A stretch of 64,000 nt of DNA from an uncultured Candidatus Saccharibacteria bacterium (GTDB lineage Bacteria; Patescibacteriota; Minisyncoccia; Phycocordibacterales; UBA5272), in assembly GCA_964457775.1 (NCBI GenBank), contig CAYWEW010000002.1, forward strand, positions 44,335 to 108,334, read 5' to 3'. Below the pieces are notes generated by a model. The model was not told the origin of the DNA. It was given only the letters and a program-made list of their open reading frames with translations, and did no database searches. Shown here one piece after another: positions 2,980 to 26,513 of the stretch (within the stretch, counting starts at the first letter, position 1; each line of letters opens with the position of its first letter). A program made the position numbers and the translations under genes.

Positions 2980-3177
2980 TTAGTTCTCGTAACTGATGCT
3001 TCCTTCCTGTTCATCGAGCGTTGGCTTTCTTGCTGACGAAAGAACAATTGGATCACAACATTCTATGATATGACGGATATAATTCATCCTGTTATAATCA
3101 TAAAAAGCAGGATCTTCTTGATACGAAGGTAGATTTAATTGATACTCGGCGGTAAAGTCATTTGTCTCATTTCTCAT
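2980..3177 (-). CDS. hypothetical small protein (65 aa)
   Basis: ORF track only. Intergenic position downstream of the nrd/nif operon. Confidence 0.25.
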   Translation of the reverse strand: MRNETNDFTAEYQLNLPSYQEDPAFYDYNRMNYIRHIIECCDPIVLSSARKPTLDEQEGSISYEN

Positions 3178-3264
3178 CTTTTGTTTCCCTTTCTTTTAAA
3201 GTGCAACATCATAAGCACCATGCCTATGACATTGTAATACTATCATAATCCCTCTAAAAAACAA

Positions 3265-3966
3265 CTAAAAAATGGCTTCTGTGTAAATTGTTTCTTCTTT
3301 TACACCACCTTCTTTTAGTCCTTTCCAAAAGTCACGAACAAACGGGATAGAGCCACATATAAGAAATTCTTTATTTTCTATATTTTTTGTTTCTTCTAGA
3401 ATATCAAAGACTTTTATTCTTTCATTTTTTATCCCCTCTTCATTAACATCCTGCTGAGTAATATAATTTTTAAATTTAAAAAAACCATTCTCTTGTTGTA
3501 CTTTTTTTAATTCATCTCCAAAAACAATATCACTAACATTCTTATTACTATTAAATAGAAACATTTCTCGTTTTTTGTTTTTTGCAACGGAGTCCATAAT
3601 TATACTTCGAAACGGTGCAATCCCCATCCCTCCTGCAATCATAACGAGTGTCGTATTTTCTTCTTCACTATAAAAATATCCATACGGAAGTGACGCTTCT
3701 ACTTTATCTCCCGTATTCATAGCACATAATTTATTTGAAAATTGCCCAACACCTTTTACAGTAATATTAAGGGTTTGTTCATGTGGCGCACTTGATATGG
3801 TATATGCCTTACCTTCAGCGTTTCCAGCATCATCAAAGTAAACTGTAATGAATTGTCCGGCATAATACTTTGGAACACCAGCATCACATGACAATCTCAA
3901 AGTAAAAACATTTTTGGTTTCTTGTATTTTTTCTTTGACAGTATATTTTATTCTATTTTCTTTCAT
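3265..3966 (-). CDS. FAD/NAD(P)-binding oxidoreductase of the ferredoxin-NADP reductase / PyrK-like family, without a C-terminal Fe-S domain
   Basis: NAD-binding GGMGIAPF motif, an FAD-binding beta-barrel N-terminus (FTLRL...GQFITV) and an AY/TISS flavin motif. Its stop overlaps the start of the NifU-like gene (3953-3966). Confidence 0.65.
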   Translation of the reverse strand: MKENRIKYTVKEKIQETKNVFTLRLSCDAGVPKYYAGQFITVYFDDAGNAEGKAYTISSAPHEQTLNITVKGVGQFSNKLCAMNTGDKVEASLPYGYFYSEEENTTLVMIAGGMGIAPFRSIIMDSVAKNKKREMFLFNSNKNVSDIVFGDELKKVQQENGFFKFKNYITQQDVNEEGIKNERIKVFDILEETKNIENKEFLICGSIPFVRDFWKGLKEGGVKEETIYTEAIF

Positions 3967-8861: not shown

Positions 8862-8916
8862 CCCGCAAAATACAAAATCCTACAAATTTAATTTGTAGGA
8901 TTTTGTATTTTGCGGG
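8862..8916. terminator. 26-bp perfect palindrome adjacent to the 3' end of tRNA-Trp
   Basis: cccgcaaaatacaaaatcctacaaa-ttta-atttgtaggattttgtattttgcggg. Shares the TTTTGTATTT arm motif with the hairpin at 19762-19805. Confidence 0.6.
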
Positions 8917-8983
8917 CCCACGAGGAATCGAACCTCGACCAACGGATTTGGAGGCCGTTGTTCTGCCACTAAACTATAGGCCC
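8913..8983 (-). tRNA. trnW: tRNA-Trp (anticodon CCA); CCA 3' end not encoded
   Basis: Reverse complement GGGCCTATAGTTTAGTGGCAGAACAACGGCCTCCAAATCCGTTGGTCGAGGTTCGATTCCTCGTGGGCCC. Acceptor GGGCCTA/TGGGCCC has one G-U pair. D arm GTTT/GAAC. Anticodon loop CTCCAAA gives CCA. T arm CGAGG-TTCGATT-CCTCG. The 31-39 pair is a C/U mismatch. The discriminator is followed by CA, not CCA. Confidence 0.75.
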
Positions 8984-12070: not shown

Positions 12071-12283
12071 ATATATATTATTATCCTTTAAGTATACCTT
12101 GACGTTTGGACTTTGCAAGGATAGATGGGGATAAGGGTAGCATGTAGAAATTATAGCCAAAGAAAAAAGAGAGGCATCCTTACTCGCAGCATCGCGATTA
12201 AGGCAATGTGCGAGAGGAAAACCTCTCTTGTTGTGTCATTTACGTATGACTACGGATTTGATATGGTTGTCTCCAGTTGTTTA

Positions 12284-12613
12284 CTACTTTTCTCCCCATT
12301 TTTTGATTTGATCAATAATCTTTTTGAGCAAAAATACAAGAAAAAAGCCGAGCGCAATAACCATTACTATGCTGAACAAAACTTGAAGACCTTTTTGGTT
12401 GAAATTCAAGATGCGAATATGAGCATTATGCAGAGCATTTCCTGCATTTTGTGCACCATTCCCGATTGCACCTATTACTCCACTCACACCATTCATTATC
12501 CAATCAACCAAAGTAGGAAGAATCATGAGAAATATTGCCAACAGAAGCACGTAACCGAGAGCGGTTCCGAGTTTTTGGGGAAATGTTTTCTCTGCTTTAT
12601 TTTCTCCTGCCAT
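12284..12613 (-). CDS. small membrane protein (109 aa), hypothetical
   Basis: Two or three predicted TM helices. Embedded in the pilin-like cluster. The antisense ORF 12125..12667 is rejected. Confidence 0.45.
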   Translation of the reverse strand: MAGENKAEKTFPQKLGTALGYVLLLAIFLMILPTLVDWIMNGVSGVIGAIGNGAQNAGNALHNAHIRILNFNQKGLQVLFSIVMVIALGFFLVFLLKKIIDQIKKWGEK

Positions 12614-12635
12614 GATGCGTTCTCCTTTCGAGAGA

Positions 12636-13451
12636 TTAGTTTATATTGGCGTAACCACCATTTTTGATGAGGACTAAAACTGGCTTACCTCTGTGCTTAT
12701 CAAGAAACTCGCGACAGAGTGAAACTGTTTCGGTGTTACCTCCAGTGTTACCACATTTGTAATATTTACCTGAGTAAACATCATTTCTGTAGTTGTTGCC
12801 TGAAATATCTTCGACCGCAACAAGGAGCTGATACTTTTCAGCATCAAACTTTTTTACCGCAGTTTCGATTTGGAACAAAGCACAACCAGAGGTTAAATGC
12901 AGGGACTGCCCGGCACCCAATTGCTGAATACTAGCATTTGCAATACCTGTATCCCTCTCTTCAGGTGTAGAACAATTGAACATTGACCCATACACAACTG
13001 TTTTTGAATCAGGTACACTTGCTGACTCATTTACATCTGAAGGTTTTGGCAATAATGAGTTCGTTACTGCTTTTATTACTTGAGGTTGCTCTTGCTTTGA
13101 CGAAAGATAATCAGCAACGAATTTTTGCGTGAACATAAAAACAACACACAAAACAAGAAACAAACCAATATACATAAAAATCTTGTATTCTTCTCTCGTG
13201 AAAAATGGTTCTTTGTCAGATGAGTCGGGCCCTTTACCGCCTCCACCACCTGGCCCACGTGAGCCACCTTTTCCACCACCGCCCGGGCCATCATCACCTG
13301 CTCTTGCAGAAGGTTTGGTTGAATCTGGCGTTTGAGGTGTTTGGGGAATAAAACTTGGAGGCATTTCTGGACTCGCGGCGGCTGCTCTTGTTTCGCTGAT
13401 TTGTTTCAAAAAAGCCTCTTCGTTTGGACTTCTTACGGATTTACCGGACAT
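12636..13451 (-). CDS. exported protein: Gly/Pro-rich low-complexity N-terminus, one TM helix, C-terminal globular domain (possible Cys-His peptidase or cell-wall hydrolase fold)
   Basis: GPGGGGKGGSRGPGGGGGKGPD tract, TM helix IFMYIGLFLVLCVVFMF, and a C-terminal domain with Cys-containing motifs (TSGCALFQ, KCGN, SLCREF). The hydrolase assignment is an inference, not a recognised family hit. Confidence 0.5.
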   Translation of the reverse strand: MSGKSVRSPNEEAFLKQISETRAAAASPEMPPSFIPQTPQTPDSTKPSARAGDDGPGGGGKGGSRGPGGGGGKGPDSSDKEPFFTREEYKIFMYIGLFLVLCVVFMFTQKFVADYLSSKQEQPQVIKAVTNSLLPKPSDVNESASVPDSKTVVYGSMFNCSTPEERDTGIANASIQQLGAGQSLHLTSGCALFQIETAVKKFDAEKYQLLVAVEDISGNNYRNDVYSGKYYKCGNTGGNTETVSLCREFLDKHRGKPVLVLIKNGGYANIN

Positions 13452-19973: not shown

Positions 19974-22457
19974 TTATAACAAATTGAAGGAAGCGAGTGT
20001 ATCCCCTTCACGAAGTTTCATAATACGTACACCTTGTGTATCACGTCCTAAAGTTGGAATAGAAGTTAATTCTGTACGAATCACTTGTGAATCCTTTGAG
20101 ACTGCGAGTAATTCCTCATTCTCTCCGGTAACTACACGCGCAATCATGAGTTTTCCAGTCTTTTCTGTTACCTTAACTGTCTTGATACCACTACCACCAC
20201 GCTTTTGTATCTTGTATTCAGAAAGTTTTGTCTTCTTTCCATAACCATTACCTGTCATAATCAAAAGCTCCGCGCCTTTTGTTCCACCAGGAATTTTGTC
20301 AGACGCAACGATCACATCACCTTTATCTAATTTCATTCCGATAACCCCTGCTGCTGTACGCCCCATTTCGCGAACATCAGTATGACTGAAGCGAATTGAC
20401 TGACCATTTTGTGTGGTAAGAATAACACTGTCTTCATCTTGAACGAAAAGTGTTGCGAGTAATTCATCTCCTTCTTCTAATTTGATTGCAATTAATCCGT
20501 TACGACGAACGTCCTTGAATGACTCTGCTGATGATTTCTTCACTGTGCCATTCTTTGTAATCATCATTAACGAAACCTTGTCATCACTCTTACTGTTCTT
20601 CATTTCTTTTTCCATCGGTAAGATCGATGTAACCTTTTCTCCGTCAGACAATTGAAGGAAATTCATAATACTCTTTCCACGTGTCGCACGCTTCCCTTCT
20701 GGTAAATCGTACATCTTAATCTGATACGCCTTTCCTTTATCAGTAAAGAAAAGTAAATCACTGTGAGTTGAAGTCGTAAGTGACATTGTTACAAAATCCT
20801 CTTCTTTGGTGTTCATATCAACAACACCAACACCACCACGTTTCTGTGTACGGAATTCATCTGGGTCAGTACGCTTAACATATCCACCAGATGTATATAC
20901 GAGTACTTCATCACGGTCAGCAATCAAATCCTCTGGATTAAATTCCTTGGCTTTATGCTTCACTATCTTTGTGCGACGTTCATCACCATACTTTGCTTTT
21001 ATATCTGTAAGCTCGTCTTTGATAATACTCATCATCTTCTTAACAGACGCAAGTATTGCTTGCAATTCTGCAATCAACTTTTGAACCGCTTTCAAATCAT
21101 CTTCAATCTTCTTTCTTTCAAGTCCAGCTAAACGTTGCAATTTCATTTCAAGAATCGCTGTTGCTTGTATATCTGAGAATTTAAATTTCTTCACGAGTTG
21201 GACGTGAGCATCCGGTGTGTCTTTTGAGGCACGAATAGTTTTGATGATTTCATCAATATGATCAAGTGCTTTTTTAAGTCCGAGCAAAATATGTTCCTTT
21301 TCAAGAGCGCGCTTGAGATCAAACTCTGTACGACGACGAACGACTTCCTTTCTGTGTCCGATAAATGATTCGAGAGCACCTTTAAGAGCAAGAGTTTGTG
21401 GTACACCATCAACAAGAGCGACCACATTGTAGTGGAACATACTCTCTAGTTCAGTGTGCTTATATAAATAGTTGAGAATTTTTTGTGGGTGACTTCCTGA
21501 TTTCAAATCAATCACAACACGAATATCTTTTGTAGATTCATCACGAAGACCTTTTATACCTTCAATCTTTTTCTCTCTCACTAGGTCAGCAATATTTTCA
21601 ATCAAATTACTCTTAAGAACTCTAAAAGGAATTGAAGTAATAATAATTTGGAACTGTCCGTTCTTTGTTTCAAAAATTTCTGCCTCCCCTCTTACTGTTA
21701 CTCCACCGCGACCTGTTGCATACGCTGCACGTATATCTGATTGGCCAAATGCGATACCTCCAAGTGGAAAGTCTGGTCCTTTTACGAATTCACAAAGGTC
21801 CTCAGTTGTTGCTTGAGGATTATCAATCAAGTGAGTTGTCGCATCAATAACTTCTGTTAGATTGTGTGGTGGGATGTTAGTCGCCATACCTACCGCAATA
21901 CCAAGAGTTCCATTTAGTAGTAGGTTAGGAACAGCGGTTGGAAGAACGCGAGGTTCTTTTTTACTTCCATCATAATTCGGCTCCATTTGAACAGTATCCT
22001 TTTCAATATCACGAAGCATTTCCATAGACACCTTAGACATCTTGGCTTCTGTATAACGATATGCCGCTGCACCGTCACCATCGATTGAACCAAAGTTTCC
22101 TTGACCCATTACAAGTGGATATCGATATGAAAAGTCTTGAGCAGACTTCACCATCGCATCATACACTGATGCATCACCATGTGGGTGATAGTTACCGAGC
22201 ACATCTCCAACAATAGTCGCCGACTTTCGGAACTTAGCTCCAGGAGTAAGTCCCATATTATTCATCGCAAAAAGTATACGACGATGCACTGGCTTAAGAC
22301 CATCACGCGCATCAGGTAGAGCGCGGGATGTAATAACTGACATCGCATAATCAAGATATGCTTCACGCATTTCTTGTGCAATATTAACTGGATGAAGTCC
22401 TACGTGAATTGGTTTCGGTGCGATTGGTTCTTCAGGTGTTGTTGTCTTTTTTGCCAT
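19974..22457 (-). CDS. gyrA: DNA gyrase subunit A
   Basis: [10 protein letters not shown]...; active-site region [40 protein letters not shown]. 827 aa with C-terminal beta-pinwheel repeats. Confidence 0.95.
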
Positions 22458-22515
22458 AAATTAACGAGTTTTAAGTTGTATTAGTATAGCATTAAACGCA
22501 TCCTTTAGCCAGTAG

Positions 22516-22854
22516 CTATTGGTTGTCATTTGTGTATGTTTCTTCCCCTTTTAACAATTCTTTTCTAGAAGTATTAATATTGTTTAATTGAACTTTGGCT
22601 TCACCTATAAACCTTGAAAACATCTCACTTGGGGATTCTGGAGTTGCTGTAGCTGTAGTGCTAATAATCAATTCTTCACTCATATATTTTTCATGCCAAA
22701 ATCCATAATCAACGTATAGAATAACAGCTGCAATCATTGTCGTAATGATTCCGGCAATGATAGCAGAATACACACGTTGCATATGATTTGACTGACGTCG
22801 AAGAAATAACAGCCAATGATGTGGGTGAAGATATTTTTTTAGAATCTTTTTCAT
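22516..22854 (-). CDS. membrane-anchored hypothetical protein (112 aa)
   Basis: Single TM helix (IIAGIITTMIAAVILYV). ORF track only. Confidence 0.4.
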   Translation of the reverse strand: MKKILKKYLHPHHWLLFLRRQSNHMQRVYSAIIAGIITTMIAAVILYVDYGFWHEKYMSEELIISTTATATPESPSEMFSRFIGEAKVQLNNINTSRKELLKGEETYTNDNQ

Positions 22855-22982
22855 AAAGATTATTATACAGCTAATAGCTTATAGTCGATAGCTGATGGCA
22901 AAATACATACGGATGCAAAGTATTCAGTTATTTGTATGTATTCGCATCTCTGTTGTTCAGAGATTATCCATTAGCTTACCAC

Positions 22983-23109
22983 TCTAAACAAAAAATTTGC
23001 TTTAGATACGAGGCGTGGCTGATTTTTGAGACCAAAATGTACGAGTAGTACTTTGCGGAAGCAAAAATCTGCCACAACAAAGTAGATGAAGCAAATTTTT
23101 TGTTTAGAG
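22983..23109 (-). repeat. 3'UTR palindromic element, copy B
   Basis: Perfect 19-bp outer inverted repeat ctctaaacaaaaaatttgc ... gcaaattttttgtttagag that includes the stop codon (23104-23106) of the MBL-fold gene. The core is about 80% identical to copy A (gatacgaggcgtggctgatttttgagaccaaaatgtacgagtagtactttgcggaagcaaaaatctgccacaacaaagtagatg). Confidence 0.6.
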
Positions 23110-23739
23110 TTCGTGGAAGAGGACCACCTCGCCTAACTTCCCGTCGATATCTTTCTTCTTAATCGTAAGCTTCTCCACCGGCTCTATCTTCTCTGCCCCT
23201 GCTTCCTTCAAAAATACTGGAAGTGATTGCTCATCATAATCCATCGGAATAACTAGCTTCGGCTCAAGTGATACGGCGAGCTTATGTGCGTCGTATGGAT
23301 TAAGTAAGAAACCATCTTTTCCAACTGGAATAAACAGTACATCTGTTTCATCAATAATTTCTTTATGCTCTGGAGAAAGTGCTGTTGCGAGCGCTCCCAA
23401 AAATGTAATACGAATATTATCTACAGTTAGAACATAACTTGTATTTTGATATTCTTTTTCTTTCTTTCCTTCTGATAATTTTGTTACAGTTCCGAATCCT
23501 TTTATAAAAATATCTTTCACTTCATATTCACCTGGACCACGAACAACGAAAGGAACTTTTTCTCCATGTTCAGTTTGCTCAGCTCCATTATAGTCTGAAT
23601 GATTCGCTGTAATAAGGGTTATATCTGCACCATATTTTGCAACTTTTCCTTTTCCTTCTTTTGAAACTGGATTAACTGCGATAGTTAAATCCCCTACTTG
23701 TAATTTAAAATGTTGACGTCCAAAGTGAGTAATAATCAT
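23104..23739 (-). CDS. MBL-fold metallo-hydrolase
   Basis: N-terminus MIITHFGRQHFKLQVGDLTIAVNP (typical of MBL-fold hydrolases) and a His/Asp-rich metal-binding region (ITANHSDY). Start chosen at the internal Met. The ORF track starts at 23787. Confidence 0.6.
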   Translation of the reverse strand: MIITHFGRQHFKLQVGDLTIAVNPVSKEGKGKVAKYGADITLITANHSDYNGAEQTEHGEKVPFVVRGPGEYEVKDIFIKGFGTVTKLSEGKKEKEYQNTSYVLTVDNIRITFLGALATALSPEHKEIIDETDVLFIPVGKDGFLLNPYDAHKLAVSLEPKLVIPMDYDEQSLPVFLKEAGAEKIEPVEKLTIKKKDIDGKLGEVVLFHEL

Positions 23740-23790
23740 AATAGTATGTATATTAACATGAGGGCGTGCTTTTTTAAAAATATACAAAAC

Positions 23791-23815
23791 AAAAAGGCGA
23801 CCAACGGTCGCCTTT
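23791..23815 (-). terminator. terminator downstream of the 141-aa gene
   Basis: aaaaggcgacc-aac-ggtcgcctttt, with flanking A/T runs on both strands. Confidence 0.55.
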
Positions 23816-23831
23816 TAGAACTTGAACCAAA

Positions 23832-24257
23832 TTAACACGTCAGTCCACCATCTTCTTTATCTTTAGGTGCGAGGTTTAATCTGATTTTTCGAAATACACC
23901 CTTAACAGCACAATCAATGTTATTTTCTGCAGAAATTCCGACATAATCCAAATTCTCTGGTTGAAATGACACACCCCAAGATGCGTACTTAACACCATTC
24001 ATTTTCAGAGCTTGTCCAACATACGGAATGAAATCAACATACTTGTCACCCTCTGTTCTACCGAAACAAGTGATCATTACCACCGCTCGCGAACCATTTG
24101 GATGTTCAATAACCAAGTCAAGATGCTCACCCTCACATGTTTCACCATGAAGACCAGGACGGTGAAGAGATACTTTCATTCCATTTTTGAGCGTAAAACC
24201 AACTTCCTGATATTTAGGACCATTTTCAGAATTAGACATAATTATTGATACCTCCAA
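23832..24257 (-). CDS. hypothetical protein (141 aa)
   Basis: ORF track only. Cys-containing, no recognised family. Confidence 0.4.
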   Translation of the reverse strand: MEVSIIMSNSENGPKYQEVGFTLKNGMKVSLHRPGLHGETCEGEHLDLVIEHPNGSRAVVMITCFGRTEGDKYVDFIPYVGQALKMNGVKYASWGVSFQPENLDYVGISAENNIDCAVKGVFRKIRLNLAPKDKEDGGLTC

Positions 24258-24376
24258 ATATTAAAATGCAAAGATTTTCAAGAAAATTTGTTTTCTTGAA
24301 CCCAACGTAACACTACTCTTTGATGTCAAAAATGTCAATAATCCCCTTTATTTACAATATTATTTACAAAAATACT

Positions 24377-24405
24377 TGACAAAAGTTCCAAATAGTGTAT
24401 AATGT
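24377..24405 (+). promoter_or_regulatory. consensus sigma70-type promoter (TTGACA-16-TATAAT)
   Basis: ttgacaaaagttccaaatagtgtataat, followed about 35 nt later by AAGGAGG and an ATG (24455). Confidence 0.55.
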
Positions 24406-24454
24406 ACTTAATAGTTCTATAAGTTAAATCGAATTTACCAAGGAGGAAATACAG

Positions 24455-24961
24455 ATGTGCGTTCTCATCGTTGAAGGTCGTCCCGTTCTCGTCGCCTACA
24501 CCGGCGGAGAGTTCGATGGATACACCCACACCCCCTTTTCTGCTCCCAGCCCCAAAAAGACAAAGGATCAAGAAAAGGTAACAACGGCGGTCAATATTCA
24601 AAAAGTTTTGAAAAAGGCCGTGAAAGACCTCGACATCATCCCGATGAACGGATCGGTAAAGCGTTCCAAAACCGCCATCAACGAAGATCAGAAGTTTGAC
24701 AGAAGGGAAAGGAATCGTGCCCGACGCAAGATCGTAATCGGTAAACGCACTGCATGCCAGGTTACGAAATACAACCTGGAAAAAGGCGCAGTGGTGACAA
24801 CTACCGAAATGCTTCCAGATGATTCTTATCTGGTTACAGTCAGCCACAGGTCGGCCGGTCTTCACGGGGGCAAGCCTCGCTACAAGGACCACCGGCTCGA
24901 CGCCATCGGCAAAGCTGGTGAACTGCGAGCAAAGCACAAGCGCCCCGTAATCCACCTCTGA
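24455..24961 (+). CDS. basic 168-aa protein of unknown function inside a GC-rich (about 52%) island
   Basis: Perfect SD AAGGAGG 8 nt upstream of the ATG. GC3-rich codons (GGC, CGC, CTC, GTC, ACC) unlike every other gene in the window. Lys/Arg-rich (RRERNRARRKIVIGKR). Preferred over the antisense 212-aa ORF (24335..24973) because of the promoter, SD and downstream terminator. Confidence 0.5.
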   Translation: MCVLIVEGRPVLVAYTGGEFDGYTHTPFSAPSPKKTKDQEKVTTAVNIQKVLKKAVKDLDIIPMNGSVKRSKTAINEDQKFDRRERNRARRKIVIGKRTACQVTKYNLEKGAVVTTTEMLPDDSYLVTVSHRSAGLHGGKPRYKDHRLDAIGKAGELRAKHKRPVIHL

Positions 24962-25130
24962 ACTCAACTTCACAACAACCCCGGCCTCGTTAAGGAGACG
25001 ACATGACTTGGTATCGAATTATCTGCCGGACATACAATCCGGCACAAGGGTAGCGGTCTAGGCAACCGACGCGATTAGAGCTCTTGTCCGCCCATTAATG
25101 GGACAGGTCAAAAAAAGACCAATCTAATCA

Positions 25131-25174
25131 CACCACCAGAACGATGGGAATCGTACTGGTGGTTTTTGTTTTAT
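25131..25174 (+). terminator. intrinsic terminator closing the GC-rich island
   Basis: caccaccag-aacgatgggaatcgta-ctggtggt followed by ttttgttttatt. Confidence 0.6.
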
Positions 25175-25328
25175 TATCCTTGCTTATTGATTATTTTTAT
25201 TGTAGTATTACAACTATTCTATTAAGAGAAAACCGTTCTAGCGTAATCCCCGATTTATGTGAAGCAATCAATAAAACGGAGCCTAGACCGACGTGGAATT
25301 CCCACTTCGTGTGGGAAATTTATATTTT

Positions 25329-26417
25329 ATGACAACAATTACAGAAAAGGGAGAACAAATAATTGCACCATACGCAGTAGATGCAGTATTTTTTAAAGAA
25401 GAAGACATCGTAGAAGGTGTTGTAATCGCAATCGAAAAGGCAGCATTATATGTTGACCTAGGCATCGCAGGAACAGGTATCATTTATGGTATCGAGTTCA
25501 TGAATGCTCGCGATGTTATTAAGCGTATTAATATTGGAGATGCTATTTCTGCAAAAATAGTACTTCGTGAAAACAAAGAAGGTTATGTAGAACTTTCACT
25601 TAAGGAGGCTCGTCAGGCTCTTATGTGGAATGATGCGGAACAAGCTATTAAAGAAAAGCGTGTTATGGATCTCGTTGTTAAGGACGCCAACAAAGGTGGT
25701 CTTATCATCGAATGGCAAGGTATGGCTGGTTTCCTTCCTGCATCACAATTGAAGGAAGAAAACTATCCTCGTATTGAAGATGGAGACAAGGATAAGATTC
25801 TACGCGAACTTAAGAAACTTATCGGTAAGCGTATTTCATTGAGTATTATTTCTGCAATTCCAAAGGAAGGAAAACTTATTTTCTCTGAAAAAGATGGTGG
25901 AACAAAGGAATCAAAAGAAATAGCTTCAGGTAATCATTTAGTTGGTGACGAAGTTGAAGGTACTGTTACAGGTGTAGTTGAATTCGGTATCTTTATCAAA
26001 CTAGAAGACGGCGTTGAAGGTCTAGTTCACAAGAGTGAAATTGACTGGGGACTAGTAGAAGACACAAAGGCATATGCTCGTGTCGGAGAAAAAGTTCGTG
26101 CGAAGATTATTGAAATCAAGGATGGGAAGATTTCACTTTCACTTAAGGCACTTAAGGCTAATCCATGGAAGGAAGCTTCAAAGAAGTATAAGAAAGGAGA
26201 TGAAGTAGAAGGTGTTGTGATTAAATTCAACAAGCACGGAGCACTCGTATCTATCGAGGAAGGTGTTGCGGGACTCGTTCATGTATCTGATTTCGGAGAT
26301 GAATTAAAGCTGAGAACAGCCCTTTCACTTGGAAAGAGCTACAAGTTCACTATCACACTATTTGATGCAAATGATGAAAGAATGACACTTGCATATGGGG
26401 ATATGGCGAAAGCATAA
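25329..26417 (+). CDS. rpsA: 30S ribosomal protein S1 (four S1 domains)
   Basis: Repeated S1 domains (GxV.G.V.....G.F). Start at MTTITEKGEQ; the ORF track begins 36 nt earlier at an upstream in-frame ATG. Confidence 0.85.
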   Translation: MTTITEKGEQIIAPYAVDAVFFKEEDIVEGVVIAIEKAALYVDLGIAGTGIIYGIEFMNARDVIKRINIGDAISAKIVLRENKEGYVELSLKEARQALMWNDAEQAIKEKRVMDLVVKDANKGGLIIEWQGMAGFLPASQLKEENYPRIEDGDKDKILRELKKLIGKRISLSIISAIPKEGKLIFSEKDGGTKESKEIASGNHLVGDEVEGTVTGVVEFGIFIKLEDGVEGLVHKSEIDWGLVEDTKAYARVGEKVRAKIIEIKDGKISLSLKALKANPWKEASKKYKKGDEVEGVVIKFNKHGALVSIEEGVAGLVHVSDFGDELKLRTALSLGKSYKFTITLFDANDERMTLAYGDMAKA

Positions 26418-26448
26418 TTACTACTATTAGCTGGTAGAAATATATATA

Positions 26449-26488
26449 AAGAAAAGCGACACCATTGGTGTCGCTTTTCTTTGTTATG
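26449..26488 (+). terminator. rpsA terminator
   Basis: aaagaaaagcgacacc-attg-gtgtcgcttttctttg. Confidence 0.6.
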
Positions 26489-26513
26489 TAAACACGTTAC
26501 AATTAAATTATAT

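Follow-up and report, generated by a model that had tools for sequence, protein, structure and literature searches.

A GC-rich transcription unit upstream of rpsA in a low-GC bacterial lineage encodes a fast-evolving orphan protein and ends in a predicted pseudoknot RNA

The window analyzed here, a stretch of 64,000 nucleotides that matches NCBI contig JACCDT010985200.1, carries a short and sharply GC-rich island directly upstream of rpsA, whose product has four S1 domains and whose start lies at 25329. The island consists of a consensus promoter, a gene for a basic orphan protein of 168 residues (here gene X, encoding protein X) and a hairpin-dense 3' tail followed by an intrinsic terminator. 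The locus reads gyrA, small open reading frames (ORFs), a Lactamase_B_3 gene, gene X and rpsA. Comparison with related contigs shows, on the evidence set out below, that the island forms one transcription unit under a strong promoter, native to a restricted clade of low-GC bacteria of the candidate phyla radiation (CPR) that resemble Gracilibacteria and use the standard genetic code. The elements of its promoter and coding part are as follows.

24376 to 24403, plus strand: sigma-70 promoter TTGACA-16-TATAAT, a 12/12 match to the consensus (-35 box at 24376-24381, -10 box at 24398-24403)
24440 to 24446, plus strand: Shine-Dalgarno (SD) sequence AAGGAGG, 8 nt upstream of the ATG at 24455, read directly from the sequence
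24455 to 24961, plus strand: gene X, basic orphan protein of 168 residues, from codon-position pattern, the ratio of nonsynonymous to synonymous substitution rates (dN/dS) and family alignments
24335 to 24973, minus strand: antisense ORF of 212 residues, with a dN/dS of 2.4 and stops in relatives

Between 24455 and 25130 the GC content is 0.513, whereas the window as a whole is at 0.356 and the flanks lie at 0.35-0.38; the island also holds the highest 500-nt GC value of the entire stretch (0.52; mean 0.356, standard deviation 0.038), an excess far beyond chance. A sequence-only reading of this DNA had singled out the island, putting it at ~52% GC in a ~37% GC genome, and the measured values of 51.3% and 35.6% bear it out. 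Its description of a textbook promoter and SD, of a basic ORF (34 lysines and arginines against 18 aspartates and glutamates, pI 10.0), of long ORFs on both strands, of a GC-rich, hairpin-dense tail with a terminator and of a site just upstream of rpsA was likewise accurate. It had also seen GC-rich codons unlike those of the neighboring genes. The GC content at third codon positions (GC3) of gene X is indeed 0.586, compared to a mean of 0.248 (standard deviation 0.055) in ~59 other long ORFs, which places it 6.1 standard deviations above them. Third-position C and G (C3 and G3) are at 0.38 and 0.21, and C3 is 0.09 in the adjacent Lactamase_B_3 gene.

The promoter is the sole 12/12 match within the 2.5 kb scanned. 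Relatives preserve both of its boxes, -35 and -10, along with part of the spacer (AAATAGTG), and the pattern CTTGACAAA...AAATAGTGTATA(A/C)T was found again in L001, L010, L014, L015, L016, and L018. Directly 5' of the -35 box, at 24348-24371, sits a tandem direct repeat, two copies of TTATTTACAA(T/A)A, which might serve as an UP element or as an operator.

The nearest ortholog of protein X, P0002, has 152 residues and 72% identity by BLASTP and is found on contigs L001-L004 in the same context as in the window, with the Lactamase_B_3 gene, a 135-residue ORF, gene X and rpsA. Over a gap-free conserved block of 99 codons, the first, second, and third codon positions account for 4, 4, and 25 differences, respectively, between the window and L001, and dN/dS in this block is 0.07. 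The first 20 codons show 8 synonymous and 2 nonsynonymous changes, and the central third has diverged with indels that total 48 nt, so that the frame is preserved. The dS of ∼0.5-0.7 falls within the range of the neighboring genes (0.37-0.69), and none of the 14 homologs examined has its sense frame interrupted. By these comparisons, the ORF at 24455-24961 is a real gene, because it combines third-position periodicity, a low dN/dS, in-frame indels and motifs that are kept in its relatives. The suggestion that the island was a mis-called structured RNA was thus wrong for the ORF.

The antisense ORF was rejected as a real or overlapping gene on its dN/dS and on the stops found in relatives. Its frame is codon-aligned with gene X, its stops corresponding to TTA, CTA, or TCA codons on the sense strand, and it is broken by 1-4 stops in 6 of 14 members (L010, L014, L015, L018, L021, and L022), mostly those of lower GC3. 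Its openness in the window is a by-product of the codon bias of the GC3-rich sense frame, which avoids these three codons.

An exhaustive hidden Markov model search over 1.84 billion cluster representatives, together with further profile searches, recovered only P0001-P0004 and P0006-P0016, and pattern scans added one more member, on L023; relatives of gene X number ∼17 among ∼15 billion proteins. The gene order of the window was seen in L001, L005-L008, L010, L014, L015, L018, and L019, and gene X stands at the Lactamase_B_3/rpsA locus in all of the at least 10 related contigs that are long enough to show it. The Lactamase_B_3 gene lies upstream in L007/L008, L010, L014, L015, L018, and L019, and gyrA and rpsA are present wherever the contig extends that far. 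The sequence-only reading had allowed that a conserved ortholog at this position would make gene X a native, if unusual, gene, and such orthologs are what we find. Its proposal of an assembly chimera or contaminant does not hold, as L006, a separate Logan assembly, is 100% identical to the window over 22278-26489, both junctions included, and the arrangement is kept in related species.

Its other proposal, recent horizontal acquisition, fails as well. Orthologs occupy the same locus, GC3 is enriched in every one of them, and gene X had no match in plasmid, phage, or viral-contig collections. No mobility genes, convincing flanking repeats or insertion scars were seen around the island; its neighbors are housekeeping or orphan genes, and no tRNA gene lies within 15 kb. 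No homolog from a GC-rich donor, phage, or plasmid was found among the ∼15 billion proteins or in the DNA collections, all homologs coming from the same syntenic locus in low-GC relatives. Of the hallmarks of an acquired island, atypical composition is present, but patchy presence, mobility genes, and donor homologs are not.

The nearest named relative is the metagenome-assembled genome "Candidatus Gracilibacteria bacterium Tobar13.5m-G72". Gracilibacteria are known for recoding UGA as glycine. The window nevertheless uses the standard genetic code: of its 60 long ORFs, 6 terminate in TGA and none is broken up, and its tRNA-Trp (8912-8983) has a CCA anticodon.

Protein X evolves extremely fast. 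Between members it is 22-50% identical (80% for the closest pair) where the adjacent Lactamase_B_3 protein is 75-97% identical, and its motifs persist at 22-38% identity. In L014, gyrA and rpsA are near-identical to those of the window, yet only the last ∼35 residues of protein X align, the N-terminal ∼100 residues being unrelated to those of the window protein. GC3 of gene X ranges from 0.41 to 0.89 across loci and exceeds that of the neighbors everywhere, by 0.06 to 0.48. Even the nonhomologous N-terminal segment of L014 has a GC3 of 0.55, close to the 0.57 of the window's own variable segment. These comparisons show the GC anomaly to be a family trait, extending to replaced segments that no longer align and led by C-ending codons. 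Such rapid protein divergence with retained GC3 is hard to square with the passive amelioration of an old import and argues that the GC-rich composition of gene X is actively maintained.

A folding test on 10 homologs, each compared with 40 synonymous-codon shuffles, with three neighboring genes of the window as controls, points the same way. In every one of the 10 homologs, the gene X coding sequence was more stable than its shuffles (z values between -0.1 and -4.6), with no shuffle of the 40 matching it in 6 of them, and the control genes gave z values of +1.1, +0.6, and -1.9. This suggests, without proving it, selection on the structure of the gene X mRNA.

Maintained composition has to be weighed against three other accounts. 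The first takes the GC3 excess as a by-product of GC-biased gene conversion at a recombination hot spot, which would also have produced the hypervariability and leave the mRNA structure functionless. In its favor, the locus has diverged to an extreme degree and had segments replaced between flanks that are otherwise conserved, and the GC content is raised in coding sequence and noncoding tail alike. The enrichment, however, is mainly in C and not symmetric, the coding sequence folds better than synonymous shuffles of equal composition, the abutting promoter and terminator are still AT-rich and ∼95-98% identical, and the GC content of the tail is explained by its covarying helices. We consider this account quite unlikely, even though it survives best among the alternatives.

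An ancient horizontal import comes next, and we give it a similarly low probability. A GC-rich gene with its tail would have entered the ancestor of the clade at this locus and would have been ameliorating slowly and unevenly ever since. The wide range of GC3, which loosely follows the GC3 of the host neighbors, is compatible with such decay, and there are no relatives outside the clade to anchor gene X as ancestral. Against this stand the lack of any homolog in GC-rich organisms, phages, or plasmids in the collections named above, the absence of insertion scars and the fact that sequences diverged to 22-50% identity, replaced segments among them, are still GC3-rich, although neutral third positions should have equilibrated long ago.

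The C-ending bias might finally be due to translational selection, with gene X expressed at an exceptionally high level and the tail no more than an elaborate terminator region. In some low-GC bacteria, highly expressed genes favor C-ending codons, and gene X shares this preference and has both a consensus promoter and a perfect SD. Yet the adjacent rpsA, normally a highly expressed gene, has a GC3 of only 0.28, G-ending codons are enriched in gene X too, and neither the covarying pseudoknot nor the conserved mini-ORF of the tail would be explained, making this account improbable.

The tail itself (24962-25132, 49% GC, hairpin-dense) and the terminator behind it hold a conserved structured RNA at ∼24990-25167, whose elements are given here.

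Start of the tail, plus strand: CA-rich linker, before the second SD
24992 to 25053, plus strand: second SD (AAGGAGA, 24992-24998) and mini-ORF with its ATG at 25003, from the comparison of tails
25024 to 25044, plus strand: hairpin H1 (UGCCGGA-CAUACAA-UCCGGCA), present in the RNAfold minimum free energy and centroid structures
25045 to 25086, plus strand: helix J (25045-25051 with 25080-25086), 5 of 7 pairs changed on both sides, 93% of its cells being paired
25053 to 25069, plus strand: hairpin H2 with loop CUAGGCA, within J, 4 of 6 pairs with two-sided changes
25073 to 25129, plus strand: helix H3 (GAUUAGA at 25073-25079 with UCUAAUC at 25123-25129), 100% paired, 4 of 7 pairs with two-sided changes
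25087 to 25105, plus strand: hairpin H4, variable, inside H3
25106 to 25120, plus strand: hairpin H5 (GGUC-A7-GACC), inside H3
25133 to 25167, plus strand: intrinsic terminator, a stem with 14-nt arms and an apical GNRA stem (ACGAU-GGGA-AUCGU), then UUUUU

Helix J encloses H2 and the 5' strand of H3, and H3 encloses the 3' strand of J together with H4 and H5; the two helices thus cross and are predicted to form an H-type pseudoknot, which has three to four hairpins. A homologous tail RNA of roughly 140-180 nt was found in eight distinct members (the window, L001, L014, L010, L011/L012, L023, L008, and L013), so that it ends the mRNA in about half of the lineages, the window included, and a hairpin of variable sequence stands at the H1 position in seven of the eight tails. 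The terminator escaped a simple terminator scan because its stem holds an inner stem and loop. In L008, L012, L014, and L023, its apical CGAC-GNRA-GUCG stem is kept and shows covariation.

The structural alignment of the tails was made by hand (with N for gaps and H4 omitted), each row being verified as a contiguous sequence. In this alignment, standard pairs fill 94% of cells and 14 of 24 pairs have changed on both sides, a result reached by 0 of 500 shuffles. When the partner strand was slid by 1-3 columns, only 29-47% of cells were paired, with 0-2 covarying pairs. In H3, GAUUAGA/UCUAAUC is replaced by GAUCAAG/CUUGAUC or GUCAGG/CCUGAC, and in J, CAAGAGU/ACUCUUG is replaced by GAGGAC/GUUCUC or UAAGAAC/GUUCUUA. 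RNAalifold on an unsupervised MAFFT alignment recovered all of H3, with compensatory changes in 4 of 7 pairs, and part of H2. RNAfold on the window tail by itself predicted H1, H3, H4, H5, and the terminator (z = -2.8). The sequence-only reading, which had described a structured 3' tail, was therefore correct and understated the case.

We searched for this RNA elsewhere. A pattern scan of 185,579 species genomes returned one locus, L014, which is a family member, and a metagenome collection gave five, two of them in the family (L023 and L026, the latter the L012 contig) and three unrelated to it (L024, L025, and L027), where ∼four chance matches were expected; viral contigs gave none. As far as sampled, the tail RNA occurs only beside genes of the X family. 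An Rfam family, which might have accounted for the island as a noncoding RNA, was not found, with tmRNA, 6S, RNase P, and the riboswitch classes among those covered: in the window only two tRNAs reached the gathering threshold of Rfam 15, the region 24200-25400 gave scattered subthreshold noise at E ≤ 10, and six related loci had no hit at the gathering score, their tails having none even at E ≤ 1. In the literature searched, we found no description of gene X or of the tail RNA. As judged by its covariation, the tail is a previously undescribed pseudoknot RNA that lies outside every Rfam family.

Ahead of the pseudoknot, seven of the eight tails carry a strong SD followed, 4-8 nt on, by a start codon, 2-4 more sense codons and a stop. 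The encoded peptides are MTWYR in L014, MTYYR in L023, MLRR in L001 and L010, MCRR in L012, MRCRS in L008, and MRL in L013. Differences among these mini-ORFs are mostly synonymous (ACC/ACU, UAC/UAU, AGA/CGA, CGA/CGU, and AGG/AGA), which suggests that they are translated.

The 3' part of the unit varies between lineages. In L015, L018, L021, and L022, merely a short hairpin and/or an A-run precedes the terminator, and L016/L017 and L019 have an extra small ORF and no pseudoknot. The pseudoknot is thus an accessory, lineage-variable part of the unit. The stretches that follow gene X in L015 (5108-5165) and L018 (1823-1871) consist of a short hairpin, a run of six or seven A residues and the terminator; this arrangement may be what is left of H5 with its A7 loop, or its A-run may pair with the U-tract of the terminator.

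The extra ORF is GC-rich, encodes 45-54 residues and stands between gene X and the tail in L008, L013, and L023. It follows gene X directly, is absent from the window, and encodes a basic peptide that ends in ...PKPWQR, PHWKR, or LPWQR before the stop. It is an undescribed small-protein family, with the following positions.

L008, ∼3290 to 3430: extra small ORF
L013, 662 to 853: extra small ORF
L017, 1346 to 1498: extra small ORF
L019, ∼3445 to 3590: extra small ORF
L023, reverse strand, ∼760 to 895: extra small ORF

Protein X varies along with the tail. All eight tail-bearing members have a C-terminal G.[LF]RAK extension; five of the six tail-less ones lack it, and the sixth, P0006, has only a degenerate form. 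By Lactamase_B_3 identity, L015 and L018 are nested among tail-bearing relatives, and both have lost the tail and the extension. This co-occurrence hints at an interaction between protein and RNA.

It is also conceivable that the tail belongs to the downstream gene as a cis-regulatory leader of rpsA, that is, as a leader-peptide attenuator or a riboswitch with the terminator as expression platform. The order of SD, mini-ORF with terminal arginine codons, structured RNA, terminator, and rpsA in the window, L001, and L014 is what such a leader would look like. We nevertheless regard it as very improbable: in a by-eye reading of the window tail, with no systematic search made, no antiterminator pairing with the 5' arm of the terminator is seen, the terminator adjoins the pseudoknot without overlap, and rpsA has a promoter-like sequence and leader of its own, both conserved. 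The downstream gene is moreover inconsistent, as L010 has unrelated small ORFs at this place and L008 has a gap of 1.3 kb, whereas the tail always travels with gene X. Least credible of all is that the whole island is a structured noncoding RNA with an incidental ORF, or an assembly chimera or contaminant; GC-rich islands of AT-rich genomes are often RNA genes and ORFs are open here on both strands, but the coding signature of gene X with motifs kept at ∼30% identity, the broken antisense frame, the lack of an Rfam hit, the identical independent assembly, and the syntenic orthologs leave this a negligible probability.

Three motifs recur in the alignments of protein X and are listed from the N terminus.

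N-terminal motif: MC.LI..G.P..VA[FY]TG
Central motif: R.KTAI..DQK..R.ERNRTRR, associated with the predicted arginine-rich helix at residues 77-87 described below
Further motif: H[RD]S[AH]G.HG[GR]KPRYKD..G.[LF]RAK, of which the G.[LF]RAK extension is found only in some members

Searches of Pfam, NCBIfam, PHROG, PADLOC, and the PDB with single sequences and with a 15-member alignment gave nothing, or isolated hits far below the cutoffs. An AlphaFold2 model from a 2-sequence alignment was useless (pLDDT 38). With the 15-sequence alignment, the mean pLDDT rose to 64 (pTM 0.25), and the sole reliably predicted structure was an arginine-rich helix at residues 77-87 leading into a long two-stranded β-hairpin at 88-130, with a pLDDT of 94 over 101-120; most of the rest was below 60. 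The arginine-rich motif DQKFDRRERNRARRK is itself predicted to be helical. A Foldseek search of the PDB with this model returned only noise, with no match at E ≤ 0.001. The comparisons and the model show a small, basic protein that is predicted to be largely disordered and is evolving extremely fast; the simplest interpretation is that it binds nucleic acid, probably RNA.

Taken together, the best explanation of the island, which we hold with moderate confidence, is a native orphan unit on a structured mRNA, combining a putative RNA-binding protein with a 3' RNA module. A fuller mechanism is tentative, and its parts taken jointly are somewhat doubtful. Protein X would be an arginine-rich-motif RNA-binding protein whose mRNA is transcribed strongly and translated efficiently, and the GC-rich composition would be kept so that this transcript folds stably. 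The 3' pseudoknot would serve as a decay-resistant module, as a stabilizer and/or as a small RNA derived from the 3' untranslated region (3'-UTR). A ribosome parked on the second SD and mini-ORF could guard the pseudoknot, with the GNRA-capped terminator behind it completing the module, and the C-terminal G.[LF]RAK extension of protein X may bind the module and so exert feedback control.

Several observations weigh against this reading of a structured unit with a putative RNA-binding protein. The mini-ORF of the window lacks the UGA stop (AGA UGA AUC has become CGA AUU AUC) and runs for 16 codons across H1 into J, ending with a TAG at 25051-25053. The co-occurrence of extension and tail comes from a small sample and is confounded by phylogeny, and the structural alignment, being hand-built, is fitted to the structure and has 9 rows from few lineages. 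The folding z values of the coding sequence are modest, one homolog being at -0.1 and one control gene at -1.9. No homolog of protein X has a known function, and the fold search was uninformative, with a model of only moderate overall confidence. Finally, the arginine-rich motif is also found in members that have no pseudoknot, and the tail cannot therefore be the only target of protein X.

Pipelines that look for GC-rich structured-RNA islands in the intergenic regions of AT-rich genomes (GC-IGR) have found RNAs such as OLE, ROOL, and raiA (PMC6429828, PMC11109978). The island resembles these in being a sharp GC-rich segment of a low-GC genome with a strong promoter, a terminator, and a covarying structured 3' part, and it differs in that most of it is protein-coding; models of OLE, ROOL, GOLLD, HEARO, and raiA gave no hit on any tail even at E = 1.

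The STAB-SD of Bacillus cryIIIA is a ribosome-binding mRNA stabilizer. Like it, and like 3'-UTR-derived small RNAs, the tail has an SD-like sequence that serves no real gene and precedes a stable structure, and it shares the terminator of the mRNA; unlike STAB-SD, this SD leads a conserved 3-5-codon ORF and a pseudoknot. Minigenes of the lambda bar type consist of an SD, an AUG, one to few codons, and a stop. The mini-ORFs share with them the strong SD, the 3-5 codons, and a last sense codon before UGA that is often a rare arginine codon (AGA, AGG, or CGA); they differ in lying within a conserved pseudoknotted RNA and in their apparently conserved peptide.

The N antiterminators of phages lambda and P22 are arginine-rich-motif RNA-binding proteins. 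Protein X resembles them in being small, basic, mostly disordered, and fast-evolving, with an RRERNRARRK-type motif that is predicted to be helical, and its gene likewise lies just after a strong promoter, on a transcript that also carries a structured RNA and a terminator. Unlike N, protein X matches none of the N families by sequence or profile, no boxA/boxB pair was recognized, and gene X is chromosomal and vertically inherited, not phage-borne. In the rpsO/S15 and alpha-operon/S4 leaders of Escherichia coli, ribosomal proteins regulate their own synthesis through mRNA pseudoknots. Here, too, a basic, predicted RNA-binding protein has a pseudoknot on its own mRNA, near an SD and a start codon, but this pseudoknot lies 3' of gene X and not at the translation start, and protein X is hypervariable and not recognizable as a ribosomal protein.

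A more specific version of the structured unit is a self-contained CPR ribonucleoprotein module, in which the hypervariable arginine-rich protein would bind the 3' RNA of its own transcript and the minigene (M-x-x-R-stop) would couple the fate or activity of this RNA to the status of the ribosome or of charged tRNA. We consider this rather unlikely. If true, it would be a new class of regulatory RNA-protein pair, beyond an orphan gene with an ornate terminator.

The locus presents a previously undescribed orphan family that is confined to one fixed place in a CPR lineage and evolves several times faster than its neighbors. Its GC3, held far from genomic equilibrium, makes it a test case for selection on mRNA composition and structure against biased gene conversion. 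To our knowledge, CPR bacteria have almost no characterized regulatory RNAs, and the new pseudoknot RNA with a conserved minigene before it offers a small and well-bounded RNA-protein pair. It also cautions that atypical composition alone is no proof of horizontal transfer in such genomes.

Three known systems were considered for the unit and rejected. A pair of SmpB and transfer-messenger RNA (tmRNA) was set aside, as there was no SmpB hit in Pfam and no tmRNA by ARAGORN or Rfam. A target of a diversity-generating retroelement would need parts that are not seen here: the neighbors include no reverse transcriptase, there is no internal or nearby repeat pair, and the coding strand of gene X is A-rich and not A-depleted. 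A toxin-antitoxin system lacks its defining parts.

On the upstream side, the island is flanked by a divergent gene for an orphan protein of 135/141 residues (23832-24257, minus strand) that has no Pfam match and stays a neighbor of gene X in L001, L014, and L019. On the downstream side, the region 25168-25328 is ∼98% identical between the window and L001. Its motif AACCGTTCTAGCGTAATCCCC returns as AACGTTCCGGCGTAACCC in the distant relatives L016 and L019, and it ends in a hairpin at 25299-25317, the rpsA start having no SD. This region looks like a conserved S1 autoregulatory leader. A perfect 10-nt complementarity between H2 (25054-25063) and this leader (25281-25290) was attributed to chance, as L014 does not keep it and a region of this size should contain roughly one such match anyway. 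In L010, a long near-perfect palindromic hairpin (3143-3215) lies upstream of the presumed rpsA and draws spurious miRNA-precursor hits from Rfam on both strands.

Elsewhere in the window, a second and smaller GC bump, of 0.55, was seen at 13200-13400 within an ORF at 12636-13451 (minus strand) for a protein of 271 residues, where it is due to a glycine-rich low-complexity run (GGGGKGGSRGPGGGGGKG). A plus-strand ORF of high GC3 at 12125-12667 is a shadow ORF.

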